Positions 1 to 26,531 of a stretch of DNA of 64,000 bases are shown here, piece by piece. The stretch's first letter is position 1; each line of letters begins with the position of its first letter. Source of the stretch: a virus (Duplodnaviria; Heunggongvirae; Uroviricota; Caudoviricetes); IMG/VR virus record IMGVR_UViG_3300008107_010192, positions 11,507-75,506 of that record, one strand, 5' to 3'. Made by a program: the position numbers and the translations under genes. The notes under the pieces are model-generated. The model did no database searches. It worked only from the letters and a program-made list of their open reading frames with translations, and was not told the origin of the DNA.

Positions 1-676
1 ATTTCACACGTTTTTACATATTTGTGAACTTTTTTCATAGAGTTCCACATTTTTTCATTCCATTTTGTTGCATTTGTATGTAAATGGATTCGTTCTAAAT
101 TTGACCATTTTGACTTATCAAAGTTTCTTAAAAAATCTCTAAATCCAACAGAAACAAATGGATCACCACTACCAGTTATATACAGCGTTTTTGTTGTTTT
201 ACCGTATTCATTTTCAATATCCTCAATCGTTTTTTTAATCCTTTGTATTCCATCGGCACTTTCCACAATTAAATCAACCCTACAAGATGGACATTTAAGA
301 TTGCACGTTCTATCAAATGAAAATTGAATTATTGTTGGGGGTTCAGTGATCCCGTTATTAAATAAATCAATTCTTTCTTTTAATTTACTCGGCATCTCAT
401 TCTTATGATAAAGAGTATCAGTATTACCAATTTTTCCAAATGTTACTAATTGATGTAAAAACGGACACTGACCTTTATCACAATATTTATAAGAGCCATC
501 TAAAACGGATTTTCTGATTTCTATAGCCTCTTCGGATTCCCAGGAATTTTTTAATGTGGTGTTTTCTGGTAGATACTTTTTCAACCACGATGCACAACAA
601 AGAAACCTATTTTTATGTTGTATTTCAAGTGACACAAATGGAACAGCACACACATAATTTTTTAAATCGATACTCA
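1..676 (-). CDS. radical SAM protein, N-terminal part (gene continues beyond window start); paralog of the 19540-26531 radical SAM family
   Basis: Manual translation of the minus strand from ATG at 676. N-terminus has Cys pattern CAVPF...CCASW...CDKGQC as in the paralogs, then CNLKCPSC (CxxxCxxC). Not in the ORF track because it is truncated by the window edge. Confidence 0.5.
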
Positions 677-1351
677 TTAAATTATATTTTTAATTTGTCT
701 CTTGTTATTTAATATATCTATTAAAAATTCTGAAAATTCATAGTGGGAGTCCTCGCACCAATGACCATCGTCTACCTCTCCATTGGTTTCTTGTTTTATG
801 TTTCTATATTTTTTAGATAAAATAATCCCACATTTTGACAGGTCTGAACACCATGACCAATGAATTATTTTATTTTTAAGAGAAAAATTAATCAATTTCA
901 TCCAGTTACATATTTCTAGTACGTAAGGGAAATTCGATCTATTAATTAGTAATTCTTGTATTGTTTTTTCCGAGATAAACTCAAATGTCTCAATTTTTTT
1001 ATGTGCAAAAAATCCGTTTTCGTTACCTGGTTCAGGATTGAAATGTCCCCACTGATCTGACTTATTTACTAATCTAAACCTACTTTGATTAGTCCAACCA
1101 AAAATTAAAATATCCCCTTCCTTAATTTTATCAACAACTTTACAAAACTCCTCTAAAATATGCGAGTTATCAACACCTCCCAGTCCTAAATTTATTAAAT
1201 TTAAACCAAGTTTCTCAGCAATAATCTCACCATAAACTTTCGGGACATATCCCTTATATTCAATGTATTTTTGTCTCCAGTGTATTGTTGATCTTTCCGG
1301 GGGGTAAAAATAATCGGTAAACGAATCCCCAAAGGTCCACAGATTATTCAT
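677..1351 (-). CDS. SGNH/GDSL-like hydrolase (paralog family member 1)
   Basis: N-terminal WTFGDSFTD (GDS block I), GLGGVDNS (block II-like), C-terminal DDGHW (DxxH block V-like). Paralogous to 3417, 4558, 13734, 17125, 22025. Confidence 0.5.
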   Translation of the reverse strand: MNNLWTFGDSFTDYFYPPERSTIHWRQKYIEYKGYVPKVYGEIIAEKLGLNLINLGLGGVDNSHILEEFCKVVDKIKEGDILIFGWTNQSRFRLVNKSDQWGHFNPEPGNENGFFAHKKIETFEFISEKTIQELLINRSNFPYVLEICNWMKLINFSLKNKIIHWSWCSDLSKCGIILSKKYRNIKQETNGEVDDGHWCEDSHYEFSEFLIDILNNKRQIKNII

Positions 1352-1893
1352 CAGATCATTGTTTTATTTTTTTCTTGTCTTGTTGTTAATTTAATTGTTA
1401 CATCGGATATCTCGATAGTATGATCTAGCTCTATAATAAAGTTTAAAATTTTAAACAAATCCTCGAATTTGAGTTTATTAAAATTCGCACCAAACATTTT
1501 ATTATTCTCCATTGTACTTGGGTTAAAATTAATAACTCTAACTTTTTTATACGGATTGGCAATATTTAATGTCTGTGATAAATTTATTAGGTGTTTTTTA
1601 TTTGAGACATATAGAGGACTAAAACATCCGTCCTCGTGTACTGCGGACGTTCCAAAATTTATTATTGTTTTTTCTAAATCCTTCCATTTTTCGAATAGTT
1701 CAAAAAAAACCAAGGATTGCTTCACATCTTTACTATATGCATGATTTAAAAATACATCGCATGAAGCTACCTGCGATAATATAGTGTCAATTTCTTCTCT
1801 TAGATCTATTTTAATTATATCGTGGGTCTTTCCCCACATAAGCGAAGCGTAATTGCCAAAACCGTCTGAAGTACCTGATATTGCTATTTTCAT
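1351..1893 (-). CDS. short NAD(P)-binding Rossmann / SDR-like protein (tentative)
   Basis: N-terminal MKIAISGTSDGFGNY resembles the SDR glycine-rich TGxxxGxG motif. Only 180 aa and the catalytic YxxxK is unclear. Confidence 0.3.
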   Translation of the reverse strand: MKIAISGTSDGFGNYASLMWGKTHDIIKIDLREEIDTILSQVASCDVFLNHAYSKDVKQSLVFFELFEKWKDLEKTIINFGTSAVHEDGCFSPLYVSNKKHLINLSQTLNIANPYKKVRVINFNPSTMENNKMFGANFNKLKFEDLFKILNFIIELDHTIEISDVTIKLTTRQEKNKTMI

Positions 1894-2393
1894 ATTAATT
1901 TCGAATTTCCTATTTGTAAATCATTCTTATTTAAAAATAATATAAGGGACCATCTCTCACCTCCTAATATTTTTTTCACTTCATGGTCCCTATCACTTTT
2001 CATTGTATAAATTGTCCCAGTAACTTTAGGAAGTATTTCTAAAGGATTATATGCAATGAATTCTCCACCATCATAACTTTCATTTAAACAAACACCTATA
2101 TTTAAAATTTGATCAGGATGCGTTGTCGAATCATTATGTTTAGCAAATTCATTACCAGCCAAATAACGATGCAAATATATTTCTTGCATTTCATTTATTT
2201 TATTTTTTGAATATTCATCTAAAAGAAATTCTTTCAGTCGATCAAATATCCACTGGGTGTTACTATTTCTAAGTACAACATGATAATAGTAATTAAAATC
2301 ATTTCTTTTAAATAATGATGATGAGTGTTTAGGTTTAAAAGTATTTGATAGATTAATTATCTTATTACATTCTTCTATTGAAAATGAAATCAT
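1890..2393 (-). CDS. 2OG-Fe(II) oxygenase (prolyl-4-hydroxylase-like)
   Basis: HPD (HxD) ... RDHEV (distal His) ... RWS (RxS 2OG-binding) arrangement; DGGEF double-strand beta-helix signature. Confidence 0.6.
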   Translation of the reverse strand: MISFSIEECNKIINLSNTFKPKHSSSLFKRNDFNYYYHVVLRNSNTQWIFDRLKEFLLDEYSKNKINEMQEIYLHRYLAGNEFAKHNDSTTHPDQILNIGVCLNESYDGGEFIAYNPLEILPKVTGTIYTMKSDRDHEVKKILGGERWSLILFLNKNDLQIGNSKLI

Positions 2394-2881
2394 ATTAATT
2401 TTTTTTTATTCATTATGTCGGTTCTTAATCGTTCAGAACTATTCTCGTCAAATAGATCTTCATAATATTGAATTGGTATTTTTAATTTATCAGACAATTC
2501 CTGTAAATCTTGACCCATTTTTATTAAAAGTTCTCTTGATTTATCAATCGTTTCTACTGGTGGTGCGACATATTCATATGGGGTTCCGGAATGATACCCA
2601 TTTCGAATATTGTGATAAAGGTAAGAGTATGATTCGAGATGATTTTTAAAATTTTTTCGATTTAATAATATCACATCATCAAATTTTTTTGATAATTCAA
2701 AATTATTCTCGTGCTGATGTATTATTGTTTTAACAACAACGTTATTCATATCATCGTCATATAAAAAACGATCACTACCGTCAAACGGCTCAAAGATTGC
2801 TCTAAATTCTCTTTCTTTCGAAATTTTATGTAATAAAGATGTAGATCCCGTTCTGGGTAATGATATTATTAAAATTCTCAT
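2390..2881 (-). CDS. sulfotransferase-like protein (Stf0/Sulfotransfer_3-like, tentative)
   Basis: N-terminal ISLPRTGSTSL matches the 5'-phosphosulfate-binding loop PRSGTT. Downstream LNRKNFKNHLES fits the RxxxxxxxS 3'-phosphate-binding motif. Shorter than typical at 163 aa. Confidence 0.45.
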   Translation of the reverse strand: MRILIISLPRTGSTSLLHKISKEREFRAIFEPFDGSDRFLYDDDMNNVVVKTIIHQHENNFELSKKFDDVILLNRKNFKNHLESYSYLYHNIRNGYHSGTPYEYVAPPVETIDKSRELLIKMGQDLQELSDKLKIPIQYYEDLFDENSSERLRTDIMNKKKLI

Positions 2882-3420
2882 ATTAATCTTTTATTGTCAT
2901 ATAATTTAAGATATTTAAAATCTGTATTAGTCATCCAAACATTTAAAGCGCATCTAACCCCAGTCGTGACAGGCATAACCCCATGGTATATTTTACTTCC
3001 ATCAAAAGATATGGACTGTCCTATTTTTAACAAATGTTTTTGTGAATCGTTTATGTTTTTTGATTTTGATAATATAAATCTCCCATCTTCAAAATTTTCG
3101 CTTAAAACTATTACTGTAGTTAGCTGTGAGGTTGAATCCAAGTGTAAATCTAATCTTCTACTATCGTAATATTTGGTAATACTTATATTAAAATCTTCAA
3201 TTTTAAAATCTTTAAAATTAAACCACAATTTAAATTTTTCTTCTTCAAAATTTTTTATGAACCTGTCAAATATCAATTTATTAAATCCTAAATCGGAAAT
3301 TCTTTTACAATCCCAAACCTCGGATGGATTATAATTAAATTTTTTACCCACCCTATCTGCATATTCAATAATTGAATTACATTCCTCACCTCCAAAGAAA
3401 TTGTTTATCGAATAGTTCAT
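2878..3420 (-). CDS. 2OG-Fe(II) oxygenase
   Basis: HLD (HxD) ... IYHGV (distal His) ... VRCAL (Arg) in jelly-roll spacing; paralog of 1890 and 4052. Confidence 0.55.
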   Translation of the reverse strand: MNYSINNFFGGEECNSIIEYADRVGKKFNYNPSEVWDCKRISDLGFNKLIFDRFIKNFEEEKFKLWFNFKDFKIEDFNISITKYYDSRRLDLHLDSTSQLTTVIVLSENFEDGRFILSKSKNINDSQKHLLKIGQSISFDGSKIYHGVMPVTTGVRCALNVWMTNTDFKYLKLYDNKRLI

Positions 3421-4052: not shown

Positions 4053-4555
4053 TAAATTAAAGACGTTCTTTTTTTATTAAACATTATAACTAAAACCCTC
4101 CTTTGTCCAGATTCTAACTGTGTAACTTGGTGAACCTGGTTGTTTCCCTCGAAATTAACATACTGTCCAATTTCTGTAAAATTTACATCCTCTCCATCAA
4201 TTATTAATCTTCCTCCCACAAATTCATTCGATAACAAAATTAACGTGGTCTGTAAAACAAAATACTTATCTCTGTGAGGTTTTGTTAAGTTTCCTTTATC
4301 ATATATTAATTCATAGAAAAAATCTATTTCATATTCAGGTTTGCCAAATTTTTCAACAATAAATGAATTAAACTTGCTATCGTGCATCCCATAATATTTC
4401 ATTGATGTCAGGATTAGTGCATCCTCGCCTTTGATAACTATATAGGGATGCTTATATTTTAAATTTTCATATTCTAAAGGATTCATTCCCCCATTTTCCG
4501 AAAGTGCTTGATTGATGTAATCGATCTCTTCGCTATTTAAACAACCAATATCCAT
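4052..4555 (-). CDS. 2OG-Fe(II) oxygenase
   Basis: HRD (HxD), GGRLII, VHQV (His), RRVLV (Arg). Confidence 0.55.
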   Translation of the reverse strand: MDIGCLNSEEIDYINQALSENGGMNPLEYENLKYKHPYIVIKGEDALILTSMKYYGMHDSKFNSFIVEKFGKPEYEIDFFYELIYDKGNLTKPHRDKYFVLQTTLILLSNEFVGGRLIIDGEDVNFTEIGQYVNFEGNNQVHQVTQLESGQRRVLVIMFNKKRTSLI

Positions 4556-4557
4556 AG

Positions 4558-6463: not shown

Positions 6464-6466
6464 TAT

Positions 6467-13762: not shown

Positions 13763-14519
13763 TTATATACTGTCCAGTTTCGTTTGGGTGATGATCGTTA
13801 ACTAATTCTTCCCAAAATTTTGTATCATAATTTTTATATCTGTCAGAATATCTTAAGCATTCATTTGATGTAAACCTCTGAGCGTCGATATTAAATTCAT
13901 CATCATCTAGCGGAAAGTAAATAATTCTGCTTGGATGAGTAATTGTTTTAATGACATTTTCTTTCCTTTTTTGCGTGGAATTTACATCTTTAGGATGTAT
14001 AGGGTTTAAAAACCAATATTTAACTGTCGCACCTATTTTATTTTCCAAATAATCAAAAACAGGAAGTACGTTTTTAAATCCAAGAATTAATAATTCAATT
14101 CTAAAATCTAAAACGAAATCTACGTATTTTTTCATTTTTTCTTCATCATAAAATTTTTCACTCCTGAAATAATCAATCTGATGCCAATCAAAATCTATCA
14201 ATACGTCATTTATTTCAAATATGTCTTTACTAGACCACGATTCTCTTACGTGGTTTTCGTTAACAAAAGGTACAGGGAACCTATCTGGGTATGTAAACTC
14301 GAAAACCACTAAATCCCCCTTCTTTATTTTTTCCATCTGCCTGAACAGCTTTACCGTAGATTCAAAATTGGATTGACCACTAAACCCGTTATTTACAAAA
14401 TTGAATCCAATTTTTTCGGCTAATATTTCTGGCCAAAATTTCAAGCCGTATTCTTTTTCGTGATGTGGAGAATGAGTCCAACTACATCCGTAAGCCCATA
14501 GTGTGTTTTTTGTAATCAT
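13734..14519 (-). CDS. SGNH-like hydrolase paralog (GCS variant)
   Basis: LWAYGCSWTHSP in place of GDS block I, NGFSGQSN, NDHHPNETGQYIIA (block V). Confidence 0.45.
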   Translation of the reverse strand: MITKNTLWAYGCSWTHSPHHEKEYGLKFWPEILAEKIGFNFVNNGFSGQSNFESTVKLFRQMEKIKKGDLVVFEFTYPDRFPVPFVNENHVRESWSSKDIFEINDVLIDFDWHQIDYFRSEKFYDEEKMKKYVDFVLDFRIELLILGFKNVLPVFDYLENKIGATVKYWFLNPIHPKDVNSTQKRKENVIKTITHPSRIIYFPLDDDEFNIDAQRFTSNECLRYSDRYKNYDTKFWEELVNDHHPNETGQYIIAENILLSL

Positions 14520-16413
14520 CTAGAATTTCTATAGATTTGAACCATAACATTTTACCAAATTTTCCATCGTGTAATGGAGACATATTTAGAAATATCAGGC
14601 CTGTTATAAATTTAATCTTATCGAGATCGAATCCGTTTTTCCTGATCCATCCCTCATATTCAGATCTAAACTTAATTAGATTCTTTGAGATATGATATTC
14701 ATATTTAATAGAATAAGATCCTTCAAAGTATGTGATATTACTGTCATCTTTCATTAAATTGTATGGGATTATTAATCCGCCATAAAACTTAGAAAGATCG
14801 TAATAAATGTCTCCAGATTCTACATTTTCTCCAAAGCAGTCTCTCCAGTCTATGTAATAGTATTCGCCATCTTCCGATAATATCATATTATCAAAGTGGA
14901 GATCACCATGAAAATTAGAATAGAAAGGATTCTCGTAAAGACAGTCAAATATTTTTTCATCAGATAATATAAGATCCAAAGATGGTCTTTTAATTTCGTT
15001 TATTTCATGATCAGAAACAAAATAACTTTCTCCATATTTAGCAAGAAATGATTCTAGTCTTTTATGGGTTTTGTCGACATAAAACTTTTTAAGATCTTCT
15101 ATGTTTGCAGGGATTGTCTCCTTGGTGAGGAATTCCAGCTTTGTCAAAAACCTACTAAAATCCCCCAGTTCCCCGCGATCGTATAAAGTTTTACCTTCTA
15201 TCCAATCGTAATAAAGAAAATTCCCAGCAACATTGAAATTTGGGGGAACCAAGCCTCTTAAAATTTCTCCTCTAATTTTCCTTCTTTCTAGCAGATCTCT
15301 ATCTTGTGTAAACTTTAAAAATTTACCCCCGTCCTTATAGGTTATTTCTCCTATGTCTTTTTTCAAAGATAGCGGTTTATCATTAAAGTACTGTCTAGCT
15401 TTATCTAGATCGTCTAGATTTCCGGTATCTAGCCATTTTAACTTTTTTGCCTTTAGACTTGTATAGACTTGAGGTGATTCAAATGCAGAAACTAATTCAC
15501 CGCTTTTAATATTTTCTTTAAGCTCTTTCCAGAAAGTGGAGTAATCTGATATTCCTCCGAAACCAACAAATGCTAGATCGTATCCGTCAGTACTTTTGTT
15601 AACGAAAGATGTTATATTTTCTTTATCGTCCATCTTCACCGTGGAGTATTTTTCTGGATATGATGTTGAATGAACCCCTAACCAGTTACCGTTTATTCCA
15701 GGGATCGGAGAATCTATGATACAATCTCCCATTATAAAATAAAAAGGTCTTTGAAGATGCTCGGAGCACAACAGAGCGCTTGTACCTGGCCCAGTTTGCG
15801 AAGGATCATAATTCTCGACATTTACGAATGTAAATTTGTGATCTGGATAAACTAGATTACAATACTCTTTGACGGAATCTCCCTTGTATCCAATAGCTAT
15901 GATAAAGTCATATTCCTTAGGGAATTTTTCTATTATGTAGGATATGATAGCCCGATTGTTTACCGGCAATAAAGTTTTATTTATGTTGTCTGTTAATTTT
16001 TTTAGACGGCTACCTAAGCCTGCACATAATATTAAAACCGCGGGAGTTTTATGCTCGCTTTCGATCTTTCCATCAGGTCTATTTGTATCATCCTCCACTC
16101 GTATTACATCGTCGACCTCCGGGGTAGAAACTTCTTGCATTATCAGGTCGGTCAAAGCAATTACCCTGTGTTTTTTAGGAGGAATTACGTTATAGTATTG
16201 ACCTGGGCCGTACACCTCCTTAACAATTTCACCTTGATCATTCTCCAGCCAAATTTCTGCTTGTCCCGATATGATATAGTTAGTTTCTTTTTTAAAGTTG
16301 TGATACTGTAAAGATGTTTTATATCCCTCGTTTATATAGATTCTTTTATAACAATAAGAATCATTAAGTTCTATCCATTCTTCTTTACCCCACGGTTTAT
16401 AAATTGTTTTCAT
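14482..16413 (-). CDS. tri-domain fusion: cupin (mannose-6-P isomerase type-II-like) + sugar-1-phosphate nucleotidyltransferase + APH/choline-kinase-fold kinase
   Basis: N-term YKPWGKEEWIELND...SLQYHNFKKETNYIISGQA (cupin); middle VLILCAGLGSRLKKLT...KTLLPV (NTase G-x-G-x-R-L motif); C-term FHGDLHFDNMIL...YYIDWRD (Brenner HGDxxxxN and D of DFG). Confidence 0.6.
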   Translation of the reverse strand: MKTIYKPWGKEEWIELNDSYCYKRIYINEGYKTSLQYHNFKKETNYIISGQAEIWLENDQGEIVKEVYGPGQYYNVIPPKKHRVIALTDLIMQEVSTPEVDDVIRVEDDTNRPDGKIESEHKTPAVLILCAGLGSRLKKLTDNINKTLLPVNNRAIISYIIEKFPKEYDFIIAIGYKGDSVKEYCNLVYPDHKFTFVNVENYDPSQTGPGTSALLCSEHLQRPFYFIMGDCIIDSPIPGINGNWLGVHSTSYPEKYSTVKMDDKENITSFVNKSTDGYDLAFVGFGGISDYSTFWKELKENIKSGELVSAFESPQVYTSLKAKKLKWLDTGNLDDLDKARQYFNDKPLSLKKDIGEITYKDGGKFLKFTQDRDLLERRKIRGEILRGLVPPNFNVAGNFLYYDWIEGKTLYDRGELGDFSRFLTKLEFLTKETIPANIEDLKKFYVDKTHKRLESFLAKYGESYFVSDHEINEIKRPSLDLILSDEKIFDCLYENPFYSNFHGDLHFDNMILSEDGEYYYIDWRDCFGENVESGDIYYDLSKFYGGLIIPYNLMKDDSNITYFEGSYSIKYEYHISKNLIKFRSEYEGWIRKNGFDLDKIKFITGLIFLNMSPLHDGKFGKMLWFKSIEILDDYKKHTMGLRM

Positions 16414-17784: not shown

Positions 17785-19562
17785 ATTAATATTTTATCTA
17801 TGACCTCTGTTTCACCTCCGGGGAACACCGCTATATCTTCGAACAGAACCTCATTGTCCCCAAGTCCCCCTAATTTTAATTGTTTTTTGAGAGTTATAAA
17901 ATTCCTAAATTTGCATATCTGAAAATTAAGAGGGGTAGTTTGATTCTTTACTCCAATCTCTTTTAAATAGTGATAAAAAACTAACTCAGGTATCAGGTGG
18001 TTTCTGCTTTCTTCAAACGTTCTAATGTCTATACTTGGTAGGTGCCTATAAAAATCGCAAATTTTATCGAACGTTAAAGAATCTGAAAACCAAAACACAT
18101 CACCAATTGCAAAATGAGGGTAAACATCAATTTTTCTATTATGTATAGAAAATATAGTATTTGGTTTAACAGTTGATAAAATTTCGATTAAATCAAAAAC
18201 CTGTCCCCATGGAACATATTGATCGTACCGTAATCTGATACAAACATCATATTCGAAATTATTTTCTATCTCGTATTGTCTTTTCAATTCGCACGATCTC
18301 ATCACTGCATAAAACTGGTTTGCACACCAAGTAATGGGCGGACCTTCATTTTCTGGATATCTCTCCTCTGCAATGTCAATAACATCCTGGTTTACTCTTT
18401 GATTTTTTTCAAAATCCTCAATTAGATATTTTTTCGGTTTGTATATTTTAATTATTTCATTTAATTTATCATCGTCGTACGGAGTTACTCTATTATTGGC
18501 GGTTACATCCAATATTGGTCTGGATTCGCTTTCAAAATTCCAAGCATGGCAGAAAAAGTCGACAGTGCTATTAGGATCACTTTCAACTTTATTTTTTAGC
18601 TTTATTATGTTGTGGTAGCATTTTTCATAAGTTCTGAATTGACCACTTAAGCAGATAGCAATTTTCATAGTTCTTAATTTTTTTAACACATTGGGTGAAA
18701 ACCCGGTCTTTTCAAAAATTTCTTTTTTGAATTTCAAAAGTAGATTGTATCCGATGTGTTTGACGTTTGATAATTTTTGAAACTCGTGATTATATAATAT
18801 TCTATTGATTTCAACACACTCCCTAAAATTATCCACTGGATGATAACCCAGGGAGAATTCTCTAAAGATTGTCCACTTATACTCCATTTCATTTAGAAAC
18901 TCTATAGATTCTATATTATTTTCCTTGAGATAATCATCAAAAAACACGTGATAAAGATCTTTGCTTTTATCTGTTGTGATAATATAGTTATGAAACAATG
19001 AAGCCTTATCCATAACTGAGGAATTTGACATAAATACCACATCATGCAGCATTCTGCTTGAAGGATTCTCAAATTCTGTTATTGTGTCGACTAAAAAAAT
19101 ACCATTTTTGATAAAAGAAATGTTGTCGTGAATTATATTTTTTAATTTAATCGACGGATCATATATGCAATCCATTCTCATTTTTATTACAACGTCGTAT
19201 TGAAAATTGTTTTCCTCTTCGTATTTCTTTTTTAAATTAACACTTTCATACCAGCTGTACCACATCGGGGAATTTGATGTCCCCTTTTTTAGAGACAAAT
19301 CGTAATAGTCCTCGTAAATATCAACCTTAGTTTTTTTTGGTTTGTATATGTTATTAATTTTTATGTAATCATTTAGTTCTACCTTCTTGATATGGGTATA
19401 TTCATGTTCGGGTCTTTCGTCCCCAAAAAATCTTTTACCGTCATTAATATCCCACGTGTGTATAAAATAGTCGGCCTCACATCCCTCAATAAAATTGAGT
19501 ATGTTGATGGAAGAATCAACTGCCCTTCTTATTTGACCACTAAAGCAAATCGCAATTTTCAT
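17781..19562 (-). CDS. protein with two tandem copies of the MKIAI GT-A-like domain
   Basis: MKIAICFSGQIRR...YFIHTWDI and again at residue ~300 MKIAICLSGQFRT...FFCHAWNF; each half ends in YDVVIKMRMD / YDVCIRLRYD. Confidence 0.3.
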   Translation of the reverse strand: MKIAICFSGQIRRAVDSSINILNFIEGCEADYFIHTWDINDGKRFFGDERPEHEYTHIKKVELNDYIKINNIYKPKKTKVDIYEDYYDLSLKKGTSNSPMWYSWYESVNLKKKYEEENNFQYDVVIKMRMDCIYDPSIKLKNIIHDNISFIKNGIFLVDTITEFENPSSRMLHDVVFMSNSSVMDKASLFHNYIITTDKSKDLYHVFFDDYLKENNIESIEFLNEMEYKWTIFREFSLGYHPVDNFRECVEINRILYNHEFQKLSNVKHIGYNLLLKFKKEIFEKTGFSPNVLKKLRTMKIAICLSGQFRTYEKCYHNIIKLKNKVESDPNSTVDFFCHAWNFESESRPILDVTANNRVTPYDDDKLNEIIKIYKPKKYLIEDFEKNQRVNQDVIDIAEERYPENEGPPITWCANQFYAVMRSCELKRQYEIENNFEYDVCIRLRYDQYVPWGQVFDLIEILSTVKPNTIFSIHNRKIDVYPHFAIGDVFWFSDSLTFDKICDFYRHLPSIDIRTFEESRNHLIPELVFYHYLKEIGVKNQTTPLNFQICKFRNFITLKKQLKLGGLGDNEVLFEDIAVFPGGETEVIDKILI

Positions 19563-20709
19563 ACTCTAATAAATAATCTCCAATGTCTAGATTTCTTATA
19601 GAATCCATCATTTTTAAAAAATTGGAAGATTTTTTTTCTAAATTCCCATCTTTTTTATTTTCTATCTCGTACATAAATCTATTTCTGTCGCCATCTCCCA
19701 ATTTGTAGATTTGCTCCATTGCAAGATCCTTCAGCTTTGGGTGTAAACAAGATATGTGTAAGTAATTGGGGCTATAGACAAAATTATATTCAATTTGTTC
19801 ACCGGAAAAAAACTCTCTAAAATTCCACACATTACAAACATTCAAAACACTTATTGTCTGGGTTATAGTAATTTGTAATTTTTCTTTTTTCAGTTTTAAA
19901 AAATTATCATACACAACTTCCCATTTTGAAGGATATCTTATATAATCATTCCTATTTCCAACGTCGTCTATAGAAAGCTGTAGTTTTACCTCCCGAAATT
20001 CTCTTAACAGCTCTAAAAACCTGTCTGGTAAATTTGTACAGTTTATGTTATATACCAGCTTTATATTTTTTGATTTGTCTAGAGAAATCAACTTCTCCAA
20101 AAAGTAAAAATGCTCCTTTATCAACGTTGGTTCTCCCCCGTTGATGTAAATTTCCTCCAATTCGCTAGAATGCTTTAATAATTCATCATACCATTCTTTG
20201 TTTTTAAACCAATCGCTTTTATAATCTTCATAGTTGTAATGATCGTCTCCGAACGTGGACGGAAATCTTTTAACATCTTCTATCCACTTGCTACTTGACA
20301 TCGGGTTGCATGTTAAACACTTTATGTTACAAACATTACCGAGTCTTAATTCGATAAACTTAAGATGTATATTTGGGAGTTTTTCGCTTATACTTATTTT
20401 ATTGAGATATTTAGCATTTTCTTCATCTCTTTTACTCTTGAATCCGTTTTCTTCTATCCTGTAACAACCTATACATTCGATAGGTTTCTCATTATTCATC
20501 ATCTTTCTTCTAATTTCTGTGAAAGAATCAGAATTCATAATGTCTTCTATGCTATCCTTACCTAGGGTTAATACTCTATTTTTAGTTTTGGAGAAACAAA
20601 CCCCATTTTCAAAATTAGCAATACAACAAGGTGACACCAGCCCGTTAGGATGAGTTGCTAAATGCGTAAACGGTAACGAACATATAGTTTTTAAATTTGT
20701 GTCCACCAT
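19540..20709 (-). CDS. radical SAM enzyme with N-terminal 4-Cys module
   Basis: CSLPF...SPCCIANF...ECIGCY (C...CC...CxxC), GNVCNIKCLTC (CxxxCxxC), IYINGGEPTL (GGE SAM-binding motif). Confidence 0.6.
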   Translation of the reverse strand: MVDTNLKTICSLPFTHLATHPNGLVSPCCIANFENGVCFSKTKNRVLTLGKDSIEDIMNSDSFTEIRRKMMNNEKPIECIGCYRIEENGFKSKRDEENAKYLNKISISEKLPNIHLKFIELRLGNVCNIKCLTCNPMSSSKWIEDVKRFPSTFGDDHYNYEDYKSDWFKNKEWYDELLKHSSELEEIYINGGEPTLIKEHFYFLEKLISLDKSKNIKLVYNINCTNLPDRFLELLREFREVKLQLSIDDVGNRNDYIRYPSKWEVVYDNFLKLKKEKLQITITQTISVLNVCNVWNFREFFSGEQIEYNFVYSPNYLHISCLHPKLKDLAMEQIYKLGDGDRNRFMYEIENKKDGNLEKKSSNFLKMMDSIRNLDIGDYLLEYENCDLL

Positions 20710-22028
20710 TCTAATAATTTTTTGTTTTGTCCTAGAATATTCTCAAATGTTAATGATCCATTTAAACCGTCCTTTCTGAACTCTGCTATTCTTATCATGT
20801 TTTCTTTCCCTCTCTTTCTGCCCTCTTTATAATCTGGATACGATTCTTCGAAAGTTTTTTTGGTTTTTAAATCTTCTAAAGCCTCCACATAAATTTGGGT
20901 TTTCGATGTAACCCTTGGCTTAATGTAATCTAGGGTATCGTCTATAATTTCTTCGAGGATGGACCTAGGTATTGACAATGGAGACATAAGAACAGAGGAA
21001 TCGAAAGAAAAAGTTGTTTTTATATAGGTTACTACATTTAATTCCACTGCACGATCGAATAATTCTTTTATAGACAGTAGGCCTGGAAGAGTTATTGTAA
21101 GATCAAAAACCATTCCATGATCGCCGTATAAATCGTTTAGAAAAAGACCTCCCTTAAAATTATCTAGCCACTTTTCCCACACTATTCCAGTTCTGATAAA
21201 TTCAACAATTTTTCCAGTTCCATCTATACTTGCACACAGATTTACCCTTTTAAAATGAGGCAGAAAATCATATAGATTCATTCCTTTATATGATACCCTG
21301 CTTAAATTTGTGTTGTATCTTATTATAACATTCTTGGATTGATTATTATCAACCAAATACTTCATGATATCCCAATGAATGTCCCACATCAATGGTTCAC
21401 CACCTACCCAATATATTTCTTCTATTCTATTCTCTTTCACTGCTTCCCAAAGTTCGTTTTCAGTAACTTCTTTCTGGAATTTTTTAAATTTTTCTTGATT
21501 TTCTTTTTTATAAAATGGCTCGGTTTCTAAATTAATGTTGCCCATTATTTTTCTTTCCGCCTCCCACTGTGAACTTAACAAGTCGCCACACATTCTACAT
21601 TTAAAATTACACAGATTACTTATCCGATAGTCATATGATATTGGTTTCATGTGAGTGTAACCATCATCTTCCGTTTTTTCGAATATCTCGTCTATTTTGT
21701 GGGGAAAAAGTGTATTGGTGAAATAACCTTTGTATGTGTAAAGATTTAGAATTTGATCGTTACAAACCTGACATTGTGGAATTGACTCTCCGGACATTAT
21801 TCTTTTTCTAATGTTTTTCATATAATCACTATTCCAATGATCCTCCAGCGAAACTGGTTTAAAATGTGAGTTATCGTCAGGATTTTCAGAATCTATGTAC
21901 TGTTTAATATAGTTTGCCTTTTCCCTACTTGCACAACATAATCTTCTTTCCCCCTGTGGGGAAAGATATGTGTGTGTCCACGGTGCTGTACAAAAAAATT
22001 CATTTCCATCCGAAGGTTTTATTCTCAT
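20691..22028 (-). CDS. radical SAM enzyme with N-terminal 4-Cys module (paralog)
   Basis: FFCTAPWTH...RRLCCASR...PQCQVCND, SNLCNFKCRMC, YWVGGEPLMW. Confidence 0.6.
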   Translation of the reverse strand: MRIKPSDGNEFFCTAPWTHTYLSPQGERRLCCASREKANYIKQYIDSENPDDNSHFKPVSLEDHWNSDYMKNIRKRIMSGESIPQCQVCNDQILNLYTYKGYFTNTLFPHKIDEIFEKTEDDGYTHMKPISYDYRISNLCNFKCRMCGDLLSSQWEAERKIMGNINLETEPFYKKENQEKFKKFQKEVTENELWEAVKENRIEEIYWVGGEPLMWDIHWDIMKYLVDNNQSKNVIIRYNTNLSRVSYKGMNLYDFLPHFKRVNLCASIDGTGKIVEFIRTGIVWEKWLDNFKGGLFLNDLYGDHGMVFDLTITLPGLLSIKELFDRAVELNVVTYIKTTFSFDSSVLMSPLSIPRSILEEIIDDTLDYIKPRVTSKTQIYVEALEDLKTKKTFEESYPDYKEGRKRGKENMIRIAEFRKDGLNGSLTFENILGQNKKLLEWWTQI

Positions 22029-22945
22029 ATTAATCTGCTAGATTTTATTATATTCTGCGTATAGAGATCACCCCTTCCGTTTGAAATCCATTCATACAAC
22101 AATTCTGCCCATAATTTGTGCGATTTGGGTGTTGGATGTACACCATATAATCTTTCCTCCAACGGTATCTGTTTTATATAATTTAAAAATGAATTTGATG
22201 GCTTGTCTTTCATCAGAAAATTGGATTCTGGTACATGGTCCCATTTTAATTTACTCATACGGTATAGATCCTCCCCCCAAATACCTTCAACATATTTGAA
22301 AGAATCTATCCATTTCATAATATTTAAGTCTATAAATTTTCTTTCCATTTTATAGATATGATGTTCCTCAGGTAAAGCATTGAACAAATAACATGGAATT
22401 CCGTACTTATCGCAAAACGTACGTATTTCAAAATTGTAGTTTATGAAATCGTACGCTCCTTCATAGTCATTTTGAACAACCGATAAATACCACTTAAAGA
22501 ATTCCCTCATTCCATATTCCTCTTTATTGAAATCTCCGTTACTGTTTAGAGTTTTTCGGTATATTTTATTATGAGTATTGAAAAAAAATTCCTTTCTAAC
22601 TATAGAGGTCCATCCAATGACTACAATGATGTCATCTGGAGTTTTATTAGGGACAATGTAGTTTTCAAGTAGCCAGTTTAAAAGTGTTTCAAAAATCCAT
22701 TTGTTACCTACTGCAGGCTTGGCTAAATTTATAACCTCTTTTGCCCCTATTAATTCTTTTAAATATGTTGGCCAAATTCTTTCAATCCTATATTGATCGT
22801 TTTTTGCGTCAGTATCTTCTTCTATTATCCCGTTAAATTTATTTATTTGGTGAGGCTTTGATGGAGCTTCCAAAAACTGTGGGTCCACAATTTCACTACC
22901 ATATGTAAAGCTATCTCCGCACACAACTAATTTCATTTCACTCAT
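22025..22945 (-). CDS. SGNH/GDSL-like hydrolase paralog
   Basis: KLVVCGDSFTYGSEI (GDS block), C-terminal YGVHPTPKSHKLWAEL (block V-like). Confidence 0.4.
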   Translation of the reverse strand: MSEMKLVVCGDSFTYGSEIVDPQFLEAPSKPHQINKFNGIIEEDTDAKNDQYRIERIWPTYLKELIGAKEVINLAKPAVGNKWIFETLLNWLLENYIVPNKTPDDIIVVIGWTSIVRKEFFFNTHNKIYRKTLNSNGDFNKEEYGMREFFKWYLSVVQNDYEGAYDFINYNFEIRTFCDKYGIPCYLFNALPEEHHIYKMERKFIDLNIMKWIDSFKYVEGIWGEDLYRMSKLKWDHVPESNFLMKDKPSNSFLNYIKQIPLEERLYGVHPTPKSHKLWAELLYEWISNGRGDLYTQNIIKSSRLI

Positions 22946-24497
22946 CTTTAATATATTTTAGCATTTCATCCTGGATATCGGGTTCGATGTAATCCTGAGA
23001 TCCTGGATTGCTATTTTGAGGATCTAATACCCATCCCTCTTTTTTTGCGGTTTCTATCACATCGTCGACATATTTATTAGATTTAGCATCGTCACCATCA
23101 ACCATTCCTATTTCAAGGGGCTCTATTTTTGTTTCAGGTATCGAATCGAACCATTCTGATAACATCGGGAATGATTCTTTAAAATTCCTATTTCTTCTTA
23201 TGTCATATTGAATATAAAAAGATTTAAAATCTCTTTCTCTAGATTCAATAGATGATGTAAATCTATGCCCAGTTTCAACTTCTCTTATGTAAGCAATCAT
23301 TCTGATTATTCCATCTCTCTCAATATCTAGTAAATCAGAAATATTCTTACTTAGCCATCCCTCTATATGATTTGCTCGTTCAATTCTTATGTCTTGCGGT
23401 AGTGTAACTATAGACTGAAAGCTTGGAAACCTTAATATATTAAAAGAACAAATCGGGAAATGCTTGCCAAATTTTTTCTTCATTTTAATTACCTCATCCA
23501 TAAATTCAGTAAGACTAAACAGACACAAAGAATTTATAGTCATCATTACGTTTAGGGATGCCAATTTACCTTCTTCACAAACCCTGTACATATTTTTAAG
23601 CCATTTTTCCCAGATTAATCCATATCTGATATACTCAGCTTGCTTCCCTGTTGCTTCGCATGATGTGTAGAGATGAAACGTTTTAAAGCTGTGTGTCGAC
23701 TTAATAAGTTCTTCCAAGAGTTCGTCTTTCTGTCCTAGATTGGAGTTAACTGCAAATTCCACACTACAATCCTTATTGGTTTCCCACCATTTCATCAGTT
23801 TCCAGAAATCTTGAGACATTGTTGGTTCACCTCCTGTTACTCTCAATTCTCTTAAAGAATATTGAAGCTCTCCCTCCCACCATTTCCAAAATGCTTCGAT
23901 GTATGGATTTCCGATATTTTTTTTACCGTATGGGAGAGAGTGCGAACCATCATGCTGGAAAGCAGCTGCACCATCACTTACTAAATTCTGATATGGGCCG
24001 AACTTTTTTATATCATTTTGCCAGGTTGTAGAAAATGAAGAATTGCAGTAAGAGCATGCAAAGTTACAATTGGGATCGAATGCAATTTCTAATGTTTTTA
24101 GATCCACGTCTTGCTGCCATCCGAGTTTGTTCTTGGCATCTTTTAGTTCTTCATCGGTGTAAATAACAGATTTATAAACCCGATCAGAAACTTTGTCGCT
24201 TCCCATGTCCTCTATTTTCCAGCAATACTCGCATTCTTTAGGTCTTTCTCCCTCCAGCATTTGTTTTCTGACCAATTTTTTATAGCTAGTGTTGTGTATT
24301 GCTTTATAACTTTGCGCAACTTCTGCGAGGGGTATTTTATGAGCTGGGGGGTGATGGCAACTAGCTGTAGTTCCGTTTCCTAACCAGATTGTTGCGTTAT
24401 ACCATTTAGCACCACAGAAGGAAGGGGAAACAGAGTTTATCGCTCTGTCCCTATATTCTTGGTAGCTCTCCTCTCCTTTTTTTGCAAATATTCCCAT
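22938..24497 (-). CDS. radical SAM enzyme with N-terminal Cys/His module (paralog)
   Basis: SFCGAKW...ASCHHPPAHKIP...ECEYCWKIED, DPNCNFACSYC, LRVTGGEPTM. Confidence 0.6.
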   Translation of the reverse strand: MGIFAKKGEESYQEYRDRAINSVSPSFCGAKWYNATIWLGNGTTASCHHPPAHKIPLAEVAQSYKAIHNTSYKKLVRKQMLEGERPKECEYCWKIEDMGSDKVSDRVYKSVIYTDEELKDAKNKLGWQQDVDLKTLEIAFDPNCNFACSYCNSSFSTTWQNDIKKFGPYQNLVSDGAAAFQHDGSHSLPYGKKNIGNPYIEAFWKWWEGELQYSLRELRVTGGEPTMSQDFWKLMKWWETNKDCSVEFAVNSNLGQKDELLEELIKSTHSFKTFHLYTSCEATGKQAEYIRYGLIWEKWLKNMYRVCEEGKLASLNVMMTINSLCLFSLTEFMDEVIKMKKKFGKHFPICSFNILRFPSFQSIVTLPQDIRIERANHIEGWLSKNISDLLDIERDGIIRMIAYIREVETGHRFTSSIESRERDFKSFYIQYDIRRNRNFKESFPMLSEWFDSIPETKIEPLEIGMVDGDDAKSNKYVDDVIETAKKEGWVLDPQNSNPGSQDYIEPDIQDEMLKYIKDE

Positions 24498-24498
24498 G

Positions 24499-25152
24499 TT
24501 AAATTATTTTGGCGCTAGGCGCTATTTTATTGAATTCGTTGATCGAATGGCTAGAGTATTCTGGATCTTCAAATATAATTCCATGATTTCCGTTCCCACT
24601 TTTATCGAATGTTTTAAATTTTGAATTTCTTTCAAAATCAAAAAACGAGTACAGCTTTTTTGATTTCTCGTCAAAGGAATCGACGATTTCATCGAAAACT
24701 GCAATTTTATAAATATCCCCTTTGAACCAGCATTCATAAGATCCACTGTATGGATTTATAGATCCTATAAAAATATTCTTGTCCGAATAAGATTCAATTG
24801 GACCGGTTTCTTTTTCACCTTTTAAAATTCCATCGATGTATATTTTAACAGAATCTGAAACTGTCACCATGACCTCCATTCTTTTATGTATATCATCAAC
24901 AGGTATCCAAATATCGTTATATTGATAGGGTTTAGTGTACCAAGAGAATTTAACACCATTTGGTTTCTGTAAAAATATTCCCATATGGTATCCTATCCTT
25001 CCTACAATCAACGACTCATCCTCTGCAAACTCAGAGAGTTGAAAATCCCCATAAAGAGAAAAATTCCCCTCCAGATTTTCAAAATTCTTTGTGTTCGTAT
25101 TATTTTTAGAATTGTTTGGGATGTAATATGCTTTCTTTTCGAATCTCATCAA
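24499..25152 (-). CDS. LamG/concanavalin-like domain protein (tentative)
   Basis: MVTVSDSVKIYIDGILKGE...IFIGSINPYSGSYECWFKGDIYKIAVFDE resembles the LamG_3/pentraxin-type beta-sandwich. Confidence 0.35.
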   Translation of the reverse strand: MMRFEKKAYYIPNNSKNNTNTKNFENLEGNFSLYGDFQLSEFAEDESLIVGRIGYHMGIFLQKPNGVKFSWYTKPYQYNDIWIPVDDIHKRMEVMVTVSDSVKIYIDGILKGEKETGPIESYSDKNIFIGSINPYSGSYECWFKGDIYKIAVFDEIVDSFDEKSKKLYSFFDFERNSKFKTFDKSGNGNHGIIFEDPEYSSHSINEFNKIAPSAKII

Positions 25153-26531
25153 ATTATTTTTTTATAAAATTCCTCAAATTCTGGAAAAACCTTCAAAAAA
25201 TTGGTGCCTCTTCTTTTATCGTGATTGTCTACAAAAATTCGGAAATCCCTCCTGTTCTGTAATAAGGTCTCTTCAGGTTCTTCCGTTACCATCCAATCAT
25301 GAATTCTATTTAACTTATTGATTTCGATGTCGGTATATCCAAATCCATCAAGACCAACTCTTATTTGTTCGTAGAAGTCCATTAGCTGAGCTTGCTCTTT
25401 TACTACTGCAGACCATTCCTTATCTAATATTTTCACTGTCTGGTGTGGAGGCCACCTTAAATAGGACGAGTCTAACATAATAGAGGAGCCATAGTATCTG
25501 TGAGGGTTGTGATATTCTTCCTTAAGCTTTATCACATTTTCTATTAGCTTTTTATAATTAGGAACGGAAAGTGCGTTATATGTGGACATTATTATTACGG
25601 TCAGAGGCTCAATTTCCTTCAATAGAAAATTAACTCTATCCCACCATTGGTTGAAGACCAAACCATGTCTAATGTATTCAGCTTGTTCTCCCCAGGTATC
25701 TGCACTGGTAAATAGTATCACCTCGTTTACCCTGTTCTCGTCTATCATTCTTTTTAATTTTTCTACCATTAGATTAAAAAGCTTATCTGGTGCTCCTAAA
25801 TTCGTATTGAGAGAAAAATTTAAATTTCTGTTTGGGTTTTTTTCATCCAGGATATAATCAAAAACCTTAAAAGTGTCTTTAGACAGAAGAGGTTCCCCTC
25901 CTGTTATTCTAAAAGTATGAAGATCTCTGTATAAATCAGGCCACCATTTCCAGAAAGCCTCAACGTATGGGTTCTCCTGATTATGCGGTCTTGGGATCAT
26001 GTTCAGATCCTTCAAATATTCTAAATTGTTAAATCTAAAGCTGGTAGGATATGGTCCATGCTGCTCTATTTCTTGAACCCATTGGGAAGAGAACGACGGT
26101 CCACAATACGAGCATTTAAAATTACAGTGATTACTAAAAGCTACCTCAACATACTTAGGATTGTAATTTTCTTTCCACCCTAAATCTTTTATTTCATTAA
26201 AATATGGGGCAGACCAGGGTTCAGAAGATTTATAAATTCTATCGGAAAATGCATTTGATGTATCTTCTATATTCCAGCAATAATCGCATTCATCTGGTCT
26301 TTTACCATGAAGCATTTTTCTTCTCTGCTGCTTTTTATAAACTGTATTATGTAGAGCAGATGGGTTTTTTTCTAACTCTGATAGTGGGATATGATGCGTG
26401 CCTGGATGGTGACACGAATGTGTTTGTCCCATTTGTAAATGAAGTGTTACTTGAGTCCATTTTGCTAAACAAAAGCCACATCCAACATCGTTTAATTTAT
26501 TTCTAGTTTTGTCGAAAAATTCGTTTAGCAT
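25149..26531 (-). CDS. radical SAM enzyme with N-terminal Cys/His module (paralog)
   Basis: GCGFCLAKW...HSCHHPGTHHIP...ECDYCWNIED, SNHCNFKCSYC, FRITGGEPLL; closest paralog of 22938. Confidence 0.6.
   Translation of the reverse strand: MLNEFFDKTRNKLNDVGCGFCLAKWTQVTLHLQMGQTHSCHHPGTHHIPLSELEKNPSALHNTVYKKQQRRKMLHGKRPDECDYCWNIEDTSNAFSDRIYKSSEPWSAPYFNEIKDLGWKENYNPKYVEVAFSNHCNFKCSYCGPSFSSQWVQEIEQHGPYPTSFRFNNLEYLKDLNMIPRPHNQENPYVEAFWKWWPDLYRDLHTFRITGGEPLLSKDTFKVFDYILDEKNPNRNLNFSLNTNLGAPDKLFNLMVEKLKRMIDENRVNEVILFTSADTWGEQAEYIRHGLVFNQWWDRVNFLLKEIEPLTVIIMSTYNALSVPNYKKLIENVIKLKEEYHNPHRYYGSSIMLDSSYLRWPPHQTVKILDKEWSAVVKEQAQLMDFYEQIRVGLDGFGYTDIEINKLNRIHDWMVTEEPEETLLQNRRDFRIFVDNHDKRRGTNFLKVFPEFEEFYKKII

Follow-up and report, generated by a model that had tools for sequence, protein, structure and literature searches.

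Radical SAM paralogs with an N-terminal twitch domain in a probable large phage: family assignment and a possible role in glycan tailoring

The window analysed here, a stretch of 64,000 nucleotides of the IMG/VR virus record IMGVR_UViG_3300008107_010192, encodes a tmRNA, 21 tRNAs, a collagen-like tail fibre and an endolysin, and seems to come from the genome of a large phage. One end of it carries several divergent radical SAM open reading frames, each with additional cysteines in front of the catalytic core, which raises the question of what family they form, what the cysteine module is and on which substrate a phage would use them. The preliminary description had counted five such ORFs, and all of them are present, on the minus strand:

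25149..26531, minus strand: N-twitch radical SAM protein of the ~460-aa type, first of the cassette; 331 bits with the family model NF033640 (cutoff 170)
26103..26126, minus strand: CNFKCSYC radical SAM cluster motif of the 460-aa copy (residue 136)
22938..24497, minus strand: N-twitch radical SAM protein of the ~519-aa type; 313 bits
24045..24068, minus strand: CNFACSYC motif of the 519-aa copy (residue 144)
20691..22028, minus strand: N-twitch radical SAM protein of the ~445-aa type; 307 bits
21588..21611, minus strand: CNFKCRMC motif of the 445-aa copy (residue 140)
19540..20709, minus strand: N-twitch radical SAM protein of the ~389-aa type; 315 bits
20308..20331, minus strand: CNIKCLTC motif of the 389-aa copy (residue 127)
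2..677, minus strand: fifth, divergent copy, of which the window holds the first 225 of 356 aa; CNLKCPSC (residue 125) at 282..305 and GSGDP

The sequence and fold features that mark the radical SAM superfamily were found, namely the CxxxCxxC triad, a partial TIM-barrel core and a SAM-binding motif of the GGE type; by these the five ORFs count as radical SAM enzymes, for which binding of a [4Fe-4S] cluster and reductive cleavage of SAM are predicted. The triad occurs in all five copies, at about the distance of 130 residues from the N-terminus that had been noted, whereas the GGEP motif ascribed to every copy occurs in four, being replaced by GSGDP in the partial one. The latter ORF is real, but it spans 2..677 with its ATG at 677 and not 1..676 as first described. 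It does continue past the window, as had been asked, and reaches 356 aa on identical contigs (L008:10675-11745).

The four complete copies exceed the curated cutoff of 170 bits, a whole-protein HMM score, of the NCBIfam model NF033640 'N_Twi_rSAM', so the family has already been named, and the E-values of 1e-91 to 1e-99 place the match far beyond chance. Their identity as twitch-type radical SAM enzymes of NF033640 is almost certain. Searches of the PDB and the literature yielded no characterised representative of NF033640, and neither a solved structure nor a paper on it. The preliminary description had held that assignment to a well-characterised subfamily would speak against its reading; the type of auxiliary domain is indeed a known one and four of the five copies belong to NF033640, but this subfamily is not well characterised. 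Other subfamilies were rejected: the MoaA model TIGR02666 gave 16-29 bits against a cutoff of 284, and the four conserved cysteines differ from the three of MoaA; the prokaryotic viperin model NF038283 gave 17-23 bits against 180, and the QueE model TIGR03963 gave 16-21 bits against 260. Pfam detected Radical_SAM and SPASM domains and one spurious weak match in the five proteins but no B12-binding domain. Of the chemistries suggested at first, which may be C-methylation, epimerisation, dehydration or C-C bond formation on a sugar or peptide, C-methylation of the cobalamin-dependent class B type is therefore unlikely.

The paralogs share 22-33% identity in BLASTP comparisons (33% between the 460-aa and 519-aa copies), and the 460-aa copy has orthologs that are 62-81% identical to it; the four types are probably old, functionally distinct paralogs. 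An AF2 model of the 389-aa copy reached a pLDDT of 90. The fifth copy stands apart as a more divergent subtype, with scores of 55 bits for the partial ORF and 73 bits for the full-length protein, both below the NF033640 cutoff; in 8 IMG/VR loci, N-twitch arrays have orthologs of it (36-41% identity) as neighbours. Elsewhere the window encodes what may be a sixth relative, more distant still, and in HMM and hhalign comparisons only its core aligns with the family:

40547..42730, plus strand: GT2-radical SAM fusion, with C-x16-CC-x46-CxxC before the core

The extra cysteines are located at residues ~10-92, ahead of the core at ~125-144:

26277..26480, minus strand: twitch four-Cys module of the 460-aa copy, C21, C40 (SCHHP), C82 and C85, with a non-conserved C18
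24222..24416, minus strand: twitch module of the 519-aa copy, C28, C47 (SCHHP), C89 and C92
21762..21992, minus strand: twitch module of the 445-aa copy, C13, C31/C32, C86 and C89
20464..20682, minus strand: twitch module of the 389-aa copy, C10, C28/C29, C79 and C82

The spacing C-x18-C-x41..53-C-x2-C is common to the four full copies. The module had been described for every copy, and this is true of the four, the partial one (C10, C27/C28, C66 and C71) having C-x4-C in place of C-x2-C. The second cysteine lies within 'CC' in three copies and within 'SCHHP' in two. Among 59 diverse family members the four upstream and three core cysteines are invariant and no conserved cysteine follows the core, in agreement with the reported lack of C-terminal SPASM or twitch cysteines; the 460-aa copy has no cysteine at all beyond the core.

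Pfam SPASM (PF13186) matches residues 10-82 of the 389-aa copy (E=8e-8) and 13-90 of the 445-aa copy (E=1.3e-5). A profile of the module alone (A4) found a single match in the PDB, residues 167-241 of BtrN (E=0.0076), in which all four module cysteines align with the ligands of the twitch cluster. The seven-cysteine SPASM motif, including CxxCxxxxxCxxxC, is absent, and since only four conserved non-core cysteines occur the domain is a twitch and not a full SPASM. The module is thus, on these alignments, a twitch (truncated or half SPASM) domain for a predicted auxiliary [4Fe-4S] cluster, placed N-terminally. This bears out the auxiliary metal site suggested at first, and it overturns the statement that the pattern fitted none of the classical families.

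The neighbouring genes are the following:

31733..32461, minus strand: Methyltransf_24 protein, with which the conserved cassette opens
30888..31736, minus strand: 282-aa GT2_4-like protein at the cassette start (weak Pfam match)
29278..30684, minus strand: GT7 + LamG glycosyltransferase, paralog of the next
27839..29281, minus strand: GT7 (Glyco_transf_7N/7C) + LamG (Laminin_G_3) glycosyltransferase
26531..27838, minus strand: 435-aa protein between the GT7 genes and the first radical SAM gene, matching neither Pfam nor NCBIfam
24499..25152, minus strand: LamG-like ~217-aa protein between the 460-aa and 519-aa copies (Laminin_G_3, E=1e-4, weak)
22025..22945, minus strand: DUF6071/SGNH-like protein with an N-terminal GDS block (E=1.7e-12)
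14482..16413, minus strand: fusion of a cupin, a sugar-1-phosphate nucleotidyltransferase and an APH-type kinase, which probably supplies an NDP-sugar

The interleaving with SGNH hydrolases, a LamG-like protein and GT7 enzymes noted earlier was recovered, the LamG-like match and most of those to SGNH/DUF6071-like proteins of the window being weak. The radical SAM series of ~460, 519, 445 and 389 aa comes after the two GT7-LamG glycosyltransferases, and the order Methyltransf_24, ~285 aa, two GT7-LamG, radical SAM ~460, ~190 aa, radical SAM ~522, ~445 and ~397 was found again in the metagenomic contigs L107, L109, L110 and L111 and partly in L001, L002 and L021. The ~190-aa gene of L107 and L110 occupies the position of the LamG-like protein, which in L001 has a 49% identical homolog at the matching place; homologs of the 282-aa protein in L001, L002 and L021 are 44-56% identical. 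The cassettes are flanked by genes for a UDP-sugar dehydrogenase, an NDP-sugar epimerase/dehydratase, a dTDP-sugar isomerase and a carbamoyltransferase.

At the level of the whole family, 6,490 clusters (50% identity) reach E<=1e-30, and members are concentrated in aquatic viral contigs with 4-12 copies per locus, the 80 IMG/VR loci having mostly 4-8 copies per ~18 kb. A carbamoyltransferase (PDB match, E=2e-52) is present in 25 of these 80 loci and a putative UDPG dehydrogenase in 19, and GT7-LamG genes lie within 10 kb in only 14-15. Neither of the two commonest partner families, the ~225-aa 'VDADA' family and one of 434 aa, is matched in Pfam or the PDB, so that their description as glycosyltransferase-like is by eye only. 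In the gene fusion P0357 the N-terminus is 42% identical to RsoM2USA_348, a radical SAM-adjoining gene of a cultured jumbo phage.

The explanation that best accommodates these data, with a probability of roughly 0.55, is that the N-twitch paralogs act one after another as radical tailoring enzymes on a glycan made by the phage; taken by itself, participation in a glycan or glycoconjugate pathway has about an even chance. In Bdellovibrionia/Oligoflexia MAGs, on the other side, tandem arrays occur in neighbourhoods lacking recognisable glycan genes. This would suit protein or peptide maturases of the anSME, SkfB or EpeE kind that modify virion proteins by Ser/Thr oxidation or epimerisation or by cross-links, for instance in the collagen-like fibre. 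SkfB is indeed the best PDB sequence match, some tandem double fusions joined by TPR repeats suggest protein-protein contacts, and the window encodes 2OG-FeII_Oxy_3 (prolyl-hydroxylase-like) paralogs and SET domains, protein modifiers alongside which such maturases could work, as well as a (G-S/T-S/T)n fibre. The nearest solved folds are likewise mostly peptide-modifying (anSME, SkfB, CteB, ChlB, EpeE), but they score no higher than viperin or PFL-AE, and the fold therefore picks no substrate class. Moreover, Pfam and NCBIfam gave no RRE/PqqD-like domain, a non-systematic look at the tightly packed genes gave no obvious precursor, and none of 85 other loci has a collagen-like repeat within 10 kb of the arrays; the partner genes that are conserved encode glycosyltransferases and sugar-nucleotide enzymes. 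Peptide maturation is considered unlikely.

The presence of viperin and MoaA among the structural and weak HMM matches could point instead to enzymes that, like viperin, MoaA or QueE themselves, act on free nucleotides, or else on DNA, and make modified nucleotides for genome hypermodification or interference with the host. The invariant or near-invariant arginines R67, R94, R258 and R372 would suit an anionic substrate, and some phage homologs are annotated 'QueE' in databases. This is very improbable given the 15-29 bits obtained with the viperin, MoaA and QueE models against cutoffs of 180-284, and given neighbours such as GT7-LamG, carbamoyltransferase and NDP-sugar enzymes rather than DNA-modification genes; in addition, the auxiliary cluster of MoaA is bound by three cysteines and has an open Fe site (PMC9012708), as opposed to the four-cysteine site here.

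The four paralogs form a conserved ordered cassette in a group of large aquatic phages, downstream of the methyltransferase, the GT2-like and the two GT7-LamG genes, and the four invariant cysteines would fully ligate one auxiliary [4Fe-4S] cluster in each N-terminal twitch domain. For the glycan-tailoring enzymes the substrate class and reaction that we infer are the following. Each enzyme would cleave SAM reductively, and the 5'-deoxyadenosyl radical would take hydrogen off a sugar carbon in an NDP-sugar or glycan made by the phage. The radical left on the substrate could then be resolved with the fully ligated cluster as electron acceptor, in a BtrN-like two-electron oxidation to a keto-sugar from which epimerisation, amination or branching could follow, the paralogs working in succession at different positions or residues. 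Dehydrogenation as the specific reaction, in BtrN-type enzymes the two-electron oxidation of a secondary alcohol on a sugar or cyclitol, is doubtful.

The same chemistry could be directed to the host surface (LPS, capsule or S-layer glycan) and block superinfection, as glycosyltransferase and radical-SAM cassettes in hypervariable regions of pelagimyophages were interpreted (PMC7029224), and in most loci the cassette is not beside structural genes. No Wzx/Wzy/undecaprenyl-type genes occur among the annotated genes of the window, though, and the GT7-LamG fusions and the Ser/Thr-rich fibre suit protein O-glycosylation equally. A host-surface target in particular seems quite unlikely, although the evidence does not discriminate between it and the virion.

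It is tempting to speculate that the tandem cassettes encode an undescribed multi-step radical sugar-tailoring pathway, in which at least four successive C-H activations yield an unusual glycan of the virion or infected cell, and that the N-terminal twitch marks a new functional class; this is put forward tentatively, and if true the class has thousands of members. The finding bears on jumbo-phage glycosylation, be it of virions or of host surfaces, and the GT7-LamG, carbamoyltransferase and NDP-sugar cassette is a concrete, clonable gene set for finding radical carbohydrate chemistry.

The comparison with known systems showed an end-to-end match of the four complete copies to NF033640, from the N-terminal twitch through the radical SAM core to a C-terminal part that is helical; this family is a bioinformatic definition, and the fifth copy remains below its cutoff. 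The full-length family profile matches SkfB, BtrN and viperin in the PDB. BtrN (2-deoxy-scyllo-inosamine dehydrogenase, PDB 4M7S/4M7T) shares the twitch with its four ligands by sequence, and its cluster, fully ligated by four cysteines, was proposed to accept electrons in the two-electron oxidation of a carbohydrate-like substrate (PMC9012708), but its twitch domain is C-terminal whereas the phage module precedes the core. SPASM and twitch domains have been described as C-terminal extensions of the core (PMC9012708); the phage enzymes share the homologous auxiliary-cluster domain of this subgroup but not its placement, and this contrast raises the question of how an N-terminal auxiliary cluster comes close to the active site. 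The core is matched best, in fold and in sequence, by SkfB, anSME and CteB, which belong to the same broad SPASM/twitch clade. Only ~180-250 residues align (TM about 0.4), however, and their auxiliary domains are C-terminal, with two auxiliary clusters (seven-cysteine SPASM) in anSME and CteB; their substrates are peptides, and the N-terminal peptide-binding domains of CteB and SkfB are absent from the phage copies. Relatives in cultured jumbo phages are RsoM2USA_349 of a Ralstonia phage, whose alignment covers 97% of the 460-aa copy at 38% identity, and proteins like the 'MoaA/NifB/PqqE family' protein of Vibrio phage KVP40, 21-25% identical over the full length (TM 0.57). These phages have one or two copies in place of a series of four or five, all with hypothetical or generic annotations, and in RsoM2USA the commonest partner gene is kept adjoining the radical SAM gene. 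Since relatives occur in the cultured phages RsoM2USA and KVP40-like, the question of whether jumbo phages glycosylate virions or host surfaces is testable.

The window is coded entirely on the minus strand from 1 to 32,461, where the ORFs are densely packed with frequent overlaps and the G+C content is about 30%. Five of these ORFs are radical SAM paralogs, designated here by their length in residues or, for the one cut by the left end, as the fifth copy.

2..677, minus strand: fifth copy, ATG start at 677, open at the left end of the window
19540..20709, minus strand: rSAM-389, 389 aa
20691..22028, minus strand: rSAM-445, 445 aa
22938..24497, minus strand: rSAM-519, 519 aa
25149..26531, minus strand: rSAM-460, 460 aa

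All five had been named in the preliminary description and were found to be present, with small corrections to the partial copy. The CxxxCxxC motif occurs in every copy, at residues 125-144, and GGEP in four of the five, the fifth copy having GSGDP. In each of the four complete copies the core is preceded by C-x18-C-x41..53-C-x2-C, with the second cysteine inside 'CC' or 'SCHHP'; in the fifth copy C-x4-C replaces the CxxC of this module. No conserved cysteine was found C-terminal of the core, and rSAM-460 contains none there at all. Identity among the paralogs is 22-33% (BLASTP). The fifth copy, whose extension past the window had been raised earlier, does continue, and on identical contigs from public metagenomes it measures 356 aa at full length (L008:10675-11745). 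Downstream of it these contigs carry a thioredoxin gene and, just past the left end of the window, a gene for a 546-aa protein with a weak TROVE (Ro60-like) match (L008 15494-17134).

The preliminary description had placed the four-cysteine module in none of the classical families it considered. By homology the module is of a known type, a twitch domain, that is, a truncated SPASM domain with one auxiliary Fe-S cluster, in a subfamily that already had a name. The Pfam SPASM model (PF13186) was covered in full and above its gathering score in two copies, at residues 10-82 and 13-90. A profile of the N-terminal modules only, built on 17 sequences, the five window copies among them, had a sole meaningful match in the whole PDB, the C-terminal twitch of BtrN (residues 167-241, E=0.0076), and all four cluster-ligating cysteines were matched in that alignment. 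The four module cysteines and the three core cysteines were all invariant when 59 diverse relatives were aligned. A structural zinc site in place of the Fe-S cluster is unlikely, given the homology of the module to the BtrN cluster ligands. The auxiliary metal site and the glycan context put forward in the preliminary description were sound suggestions.

The NCBIfam model NF033640 ('N_Twi_rSAM, twitch domain-containing radical SAM protein') matched the four complete copies from one end to the other, at 307-331 bits where 170 is the cutoff, and all other radical SAM models (MoaA, viperin, QueE, NrdG and several SPASM maturases) gave 15-37 bits against cutoffs of 130-650. NF033640 was still the best match of the full-length fifth copy, at 73 bits, and its sequence places this copy as a divergent relative of the family; in at least eight viral loci its orthologs (36-41% identity) adjoin N-twitch arrays. 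The five genes add members to a curated, previously named subfamily, and the probability that the domain and family of the copies are correctly assigned is estimated at about 0.95. Single-protein sequence searches of the PDB returned SkfB alone at E=0.0017 or no match, and no characterised family member was found in the PDB, where the hits were weak and lay in the core or twitch of SkfB, BtrN and viperin. Nucleotide or DNA modification, which the weak similarity to viperin and MoaA and conserved arginines could suggest, is opposed by scores below every family cutoff and by a gene context that does not suit it.

The AlphaFold2 model of rSAM-389, obtained from the 59-sequence alignment, was confident (mean pLDDT 90.2, pTM 0.87) and runs from an N-terminal beta-hairpin with helices through an alternating strand-helix core to a helical C-terminal region. 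Many 'uncultured Caudovirales phage' proteins of the BFVD viral library match it over the full length at TM 0.7-0.82, and the KVP40 radical SAM protein of the same library at TM 0.57. Protein-level relatives in cultured phages were limited to the Ralstonia jumbo phage RsoM2USA (38%) and KVP40-like Vibrio phages (21-25%); at the DNA level no cultured phage was close, the region giving tRNA matches only against 50,697 phage records. The literature searched on N-terminal twitch or SPASM domains, NF033640, and phage radical SAM plus glycan yielded no paper on the N-twitch family, and a study of pelagimyophages reported unnamed radical-SAM cassettes beside glycosyltransferases (PMC7029224).

The window appears to belong to a large phage, judging from its tmRNA, 21 tRNAs, collagen-like tail fibre and PHROG matches to endolysin, HNH and nuclease. 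Contigs of 290-320 kb carry close relatives of rSAM-460, and family-bearing IMG/VR contigs reach 352 kb. Further features of the window are as follows.

1351-8478: array of small paralogous ORFs, several of them 2OG-Fe(II) oxygenases of the prolyl-4-hydroxylase type (PF13640)
8643-10517, minus strand: 624-aa protein, last ~150 residues matching Hint/intein-splicing/AXH models, N-terminal part without annotation
14482-16413, minus strand: cupin (mannose-6-P isomerase C-terminal type), sugar-1-phosphate nucleotidyltransferase and APH-type kinase domains joined in one 643-aa protein
17781-19562, minus strand: 593-aa protein with an internal duplication and a weak DUF7796 match
36839-37221 and 38885-61141, plus strand: tmRNA (tag peptide ending ...YAIAA) and 21 tRNA genes
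40547-42730, plus strand: GT2 glycosyltransferase-radical SAM fusion, followed by GFO/IDH/MocA oxidoreductase and ATP-grasp genes
46184-50822: collagen-like (G-S/T-S/T)n fibre, 45-49% G+C within a genome of 30% G+C

Two adjoining SET-domain proteins (7571-8005 and 8005-8478) share 34% identity. Both halves of the 593-aa protein begin with MKIAIC(F/L)SGQ, and a downstream 243-aa ORF (16397-17128, minus strand) opens with a similar motif. In the GT2-radical SAM fusion, C-x16-CC-x46-CxxC stands directly before CxxxCxxC and is twitch-like by eye; a homologous twitch module there was unsupported, HMM and hhalign comparisons aligning the core only. The fibre, which has numerous PHROG tail-fibre matches, is spread over two ORFs: that at 46184-49315 ends within the repeat, and the collagen frame resumes at about 49311 in the overlapping ORF 48798-50822, the C-terminal end of which is a Peptidase_S74 chaperone domain. 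The two ORFs represent either a single frameshifted gene (an assembly error or programmed) or two genes. Among the tRNAs, three are for Ser, one is for Thr and two are for Gly, the dominant residues of this nearby fibre.

The paralogs belong to a conserved cassette. In the window it runs from Methyltransf_24 (31733..32461) through a 282-aa GT2_4-like protein, a pair of GT7+LamG glycosyltransferases, a 435-aa protein with no Pfam or NCBIfam match, rSAM-460, a LamG-like protein of 217 aa, rSAM-519 and a DUF6071/SGNH-like protein to rSAM-445 and rSAM-389. On independent contigs the succession Methyltransf_24, ~285 aa, two (to three) GT7-LamG, rSAM of ~460, ~190 aa, then rSAMs of ~522, ~445 and ~397 is repeated (L107/L108, L109, L110, L111) or partly retained (L001, L002, L021). 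Orthologs are 44-77% identical versus the 22-33% between paralogs, which indicates that the paralogs are old and presumably differ in function. Downstream of related cassettes there are UDP-sugar dehydrogenase, carbamoyltransferase, NDP-sugar epimerase/dehydratase, dTDP-sugar isomerase, and PhyH or 2OG oxygenases. The 643-aa triple fusion resembles a salvage-style way of making an NDP-sugar and, with the shikimate-DH-like, APS-kinase-like P-loop and HAD-like proteins also encoded in the window, an activated-sugar supply route. The small LamG-like proteins among the radical SAM genes (window 24499-25152; L001 11370-12011; L002 11392-12060 and 13438-14175) have in common a C-terminal 'FK.(F/W)D.SGNGNHG', and the GT7-LamG enzymes a similar 'DLSGNGN'. 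L021 (VHCC01000006.1), a 23-kb contig binned in a MAG labelled Candidatus Pelagibacterales, carries Methyltransf_24, 282 aa, GT7, GT7 and rSAM at 42-56% identity to the window; the binning of a phage contig by its composition is the probable explanation, and a hint about the host is otherwise possible.

A profile search over 1.84 billion representative proteins gave 6,490 clusters of the N-twitch family at E<=1e-30 and 11,320 at E<=1e-10. The names of cluster members carried no useful information. Among the IMG/VR pattern matches listed, 560 of 596 were confirmed relatives. The best 80 IMG/VR loci (mean 18 kb) mostly hold 4-8 family copies each, with a maximum of 12, and their other ORFs were clustered into partner families.

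Partner families in the best 80 IMG/VR loci (number of loci)
~225-aa family with 'VDADA ... EYGYGGVKL' signature: 40
434-aa family of no assigned type: 35
~383-aa radical SAM with C-terminal cysteines: 34
~270-aa GT-A-like family: 29
Carbamoyltransferase, matching TobZ, GdmN and NovN-type structures (E=2e-52): 25
Methyltransferase: 22
UDP-sugar dehydrogenase: 19
GT7-LamG: 14

In the family member P0357 the ~225-aa family forms the N-terminal part of a fusion with an N-twitch enzyme, and in RsoM2USA it is encoded next to the radical SAM gene (42% identity, E=5e-62), which constitutes a gene-fusion link between the two. This and the 434-aa family, the commonest partners, had no match in Pfam or the PDB, nor had the N-terminal extensions of the fused members P0304, P0340 and P0357; by eye only, a putative sulfotransferase-like loop and LamG-like and DxD GT-like features were seen among them. 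The ~383-aa radical SAM partner has extra C-terminal cysteines, with 'GYMLPCCFLGG' (set L027-L106, e.g. L067 17206-18372), and by this motif alone looks like a C-terminal twitch protein; if so, both domain orders would stand side by side in the same loci.

Many members (P0271-P0291 and others) are single polypeptides of 790-1413 aa with two or three complete N-twitch units, connected in some by TPR repeats (P0287 and P0288 are among the multi-unit entries). Tandem arrays also occur in Bdellovibrionia/Oligoflexia MAGs of predatory bacteria (L014, L012, L019), with at least seven copies in 10 kb in L014; one such array adjoins a phage-type integrase. No glycan genes were recognised near these arrays, and the bacterial contexts, Rhizobium included, gave no functional hint. 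That the enzymes are peptide or protein maturases would agree with these arrays, the TPR fusions, the identity of the nearest solved structures and the 2OG and SET protein modifiers close by, and is countered by the lack of an RRE match in Pfam or NCBIfam and of any obvious precursor gene, and by conserved partners that are sugar enzymes.

In viral genomes the N-twitch paralogs stand repeatedly beside glycosyltransferases and sugar-nucleotide or sugar-tailoring enzymes, and the odds that they act in a glycan pathway are judged roughly even. In such a pathway each enzyme would form a 5'-deoxyadenosyl radical, which would take a hydrogen off a sugar carbon in a nascent glycan or an NDP-sugar; the second electron would pass to the fully ligated auxiliary cluster, as proposed for BtrN, and the resulting keto-sugar or related compound would be elaborated by downstream enzymes, the paralogs working at successive positions. 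Dehydrogenation as the specific reaction is a doubtful choice. Twitch-type sugar epimerases such as HygY use a cysteine as the H-atom donor; no extra conserved cysteine suited to this was found in the N-twitch copies, which mildly favours oxidation over epimerisation. The glycan may be destined for the virion or for the surface of the host. The Ser/Thr-rich collagen-like fibre (46184..50822) is an attractive candidate for the glycan acceptor. As a dedicated substrate it lost support, the idea being weakened by the lack of collagen repeats near the arrays of 85 other loci.

The interest of these enzymes lies in a large, virus-enriched N-twitch family set in conserved multi-paralog cassettes open to direct test. 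In BtrN the twitch cluster is ligated by four cysteines and has been proposed as the electron acceptor in a two-electron oxidation, and the cluster of MoaA has three cysteines, with substrate binding at its open Fe site (PMC9012708). The four-cysteine pattern of the window copies resembles the fully ligated type of BtrN and differs from the three-cysteine pattern of MoaA. SPASM and twitch domains are presented in the same review as C-terminal extensions, whereas the predicted twitch of the window copies precedes the radical SAM core.
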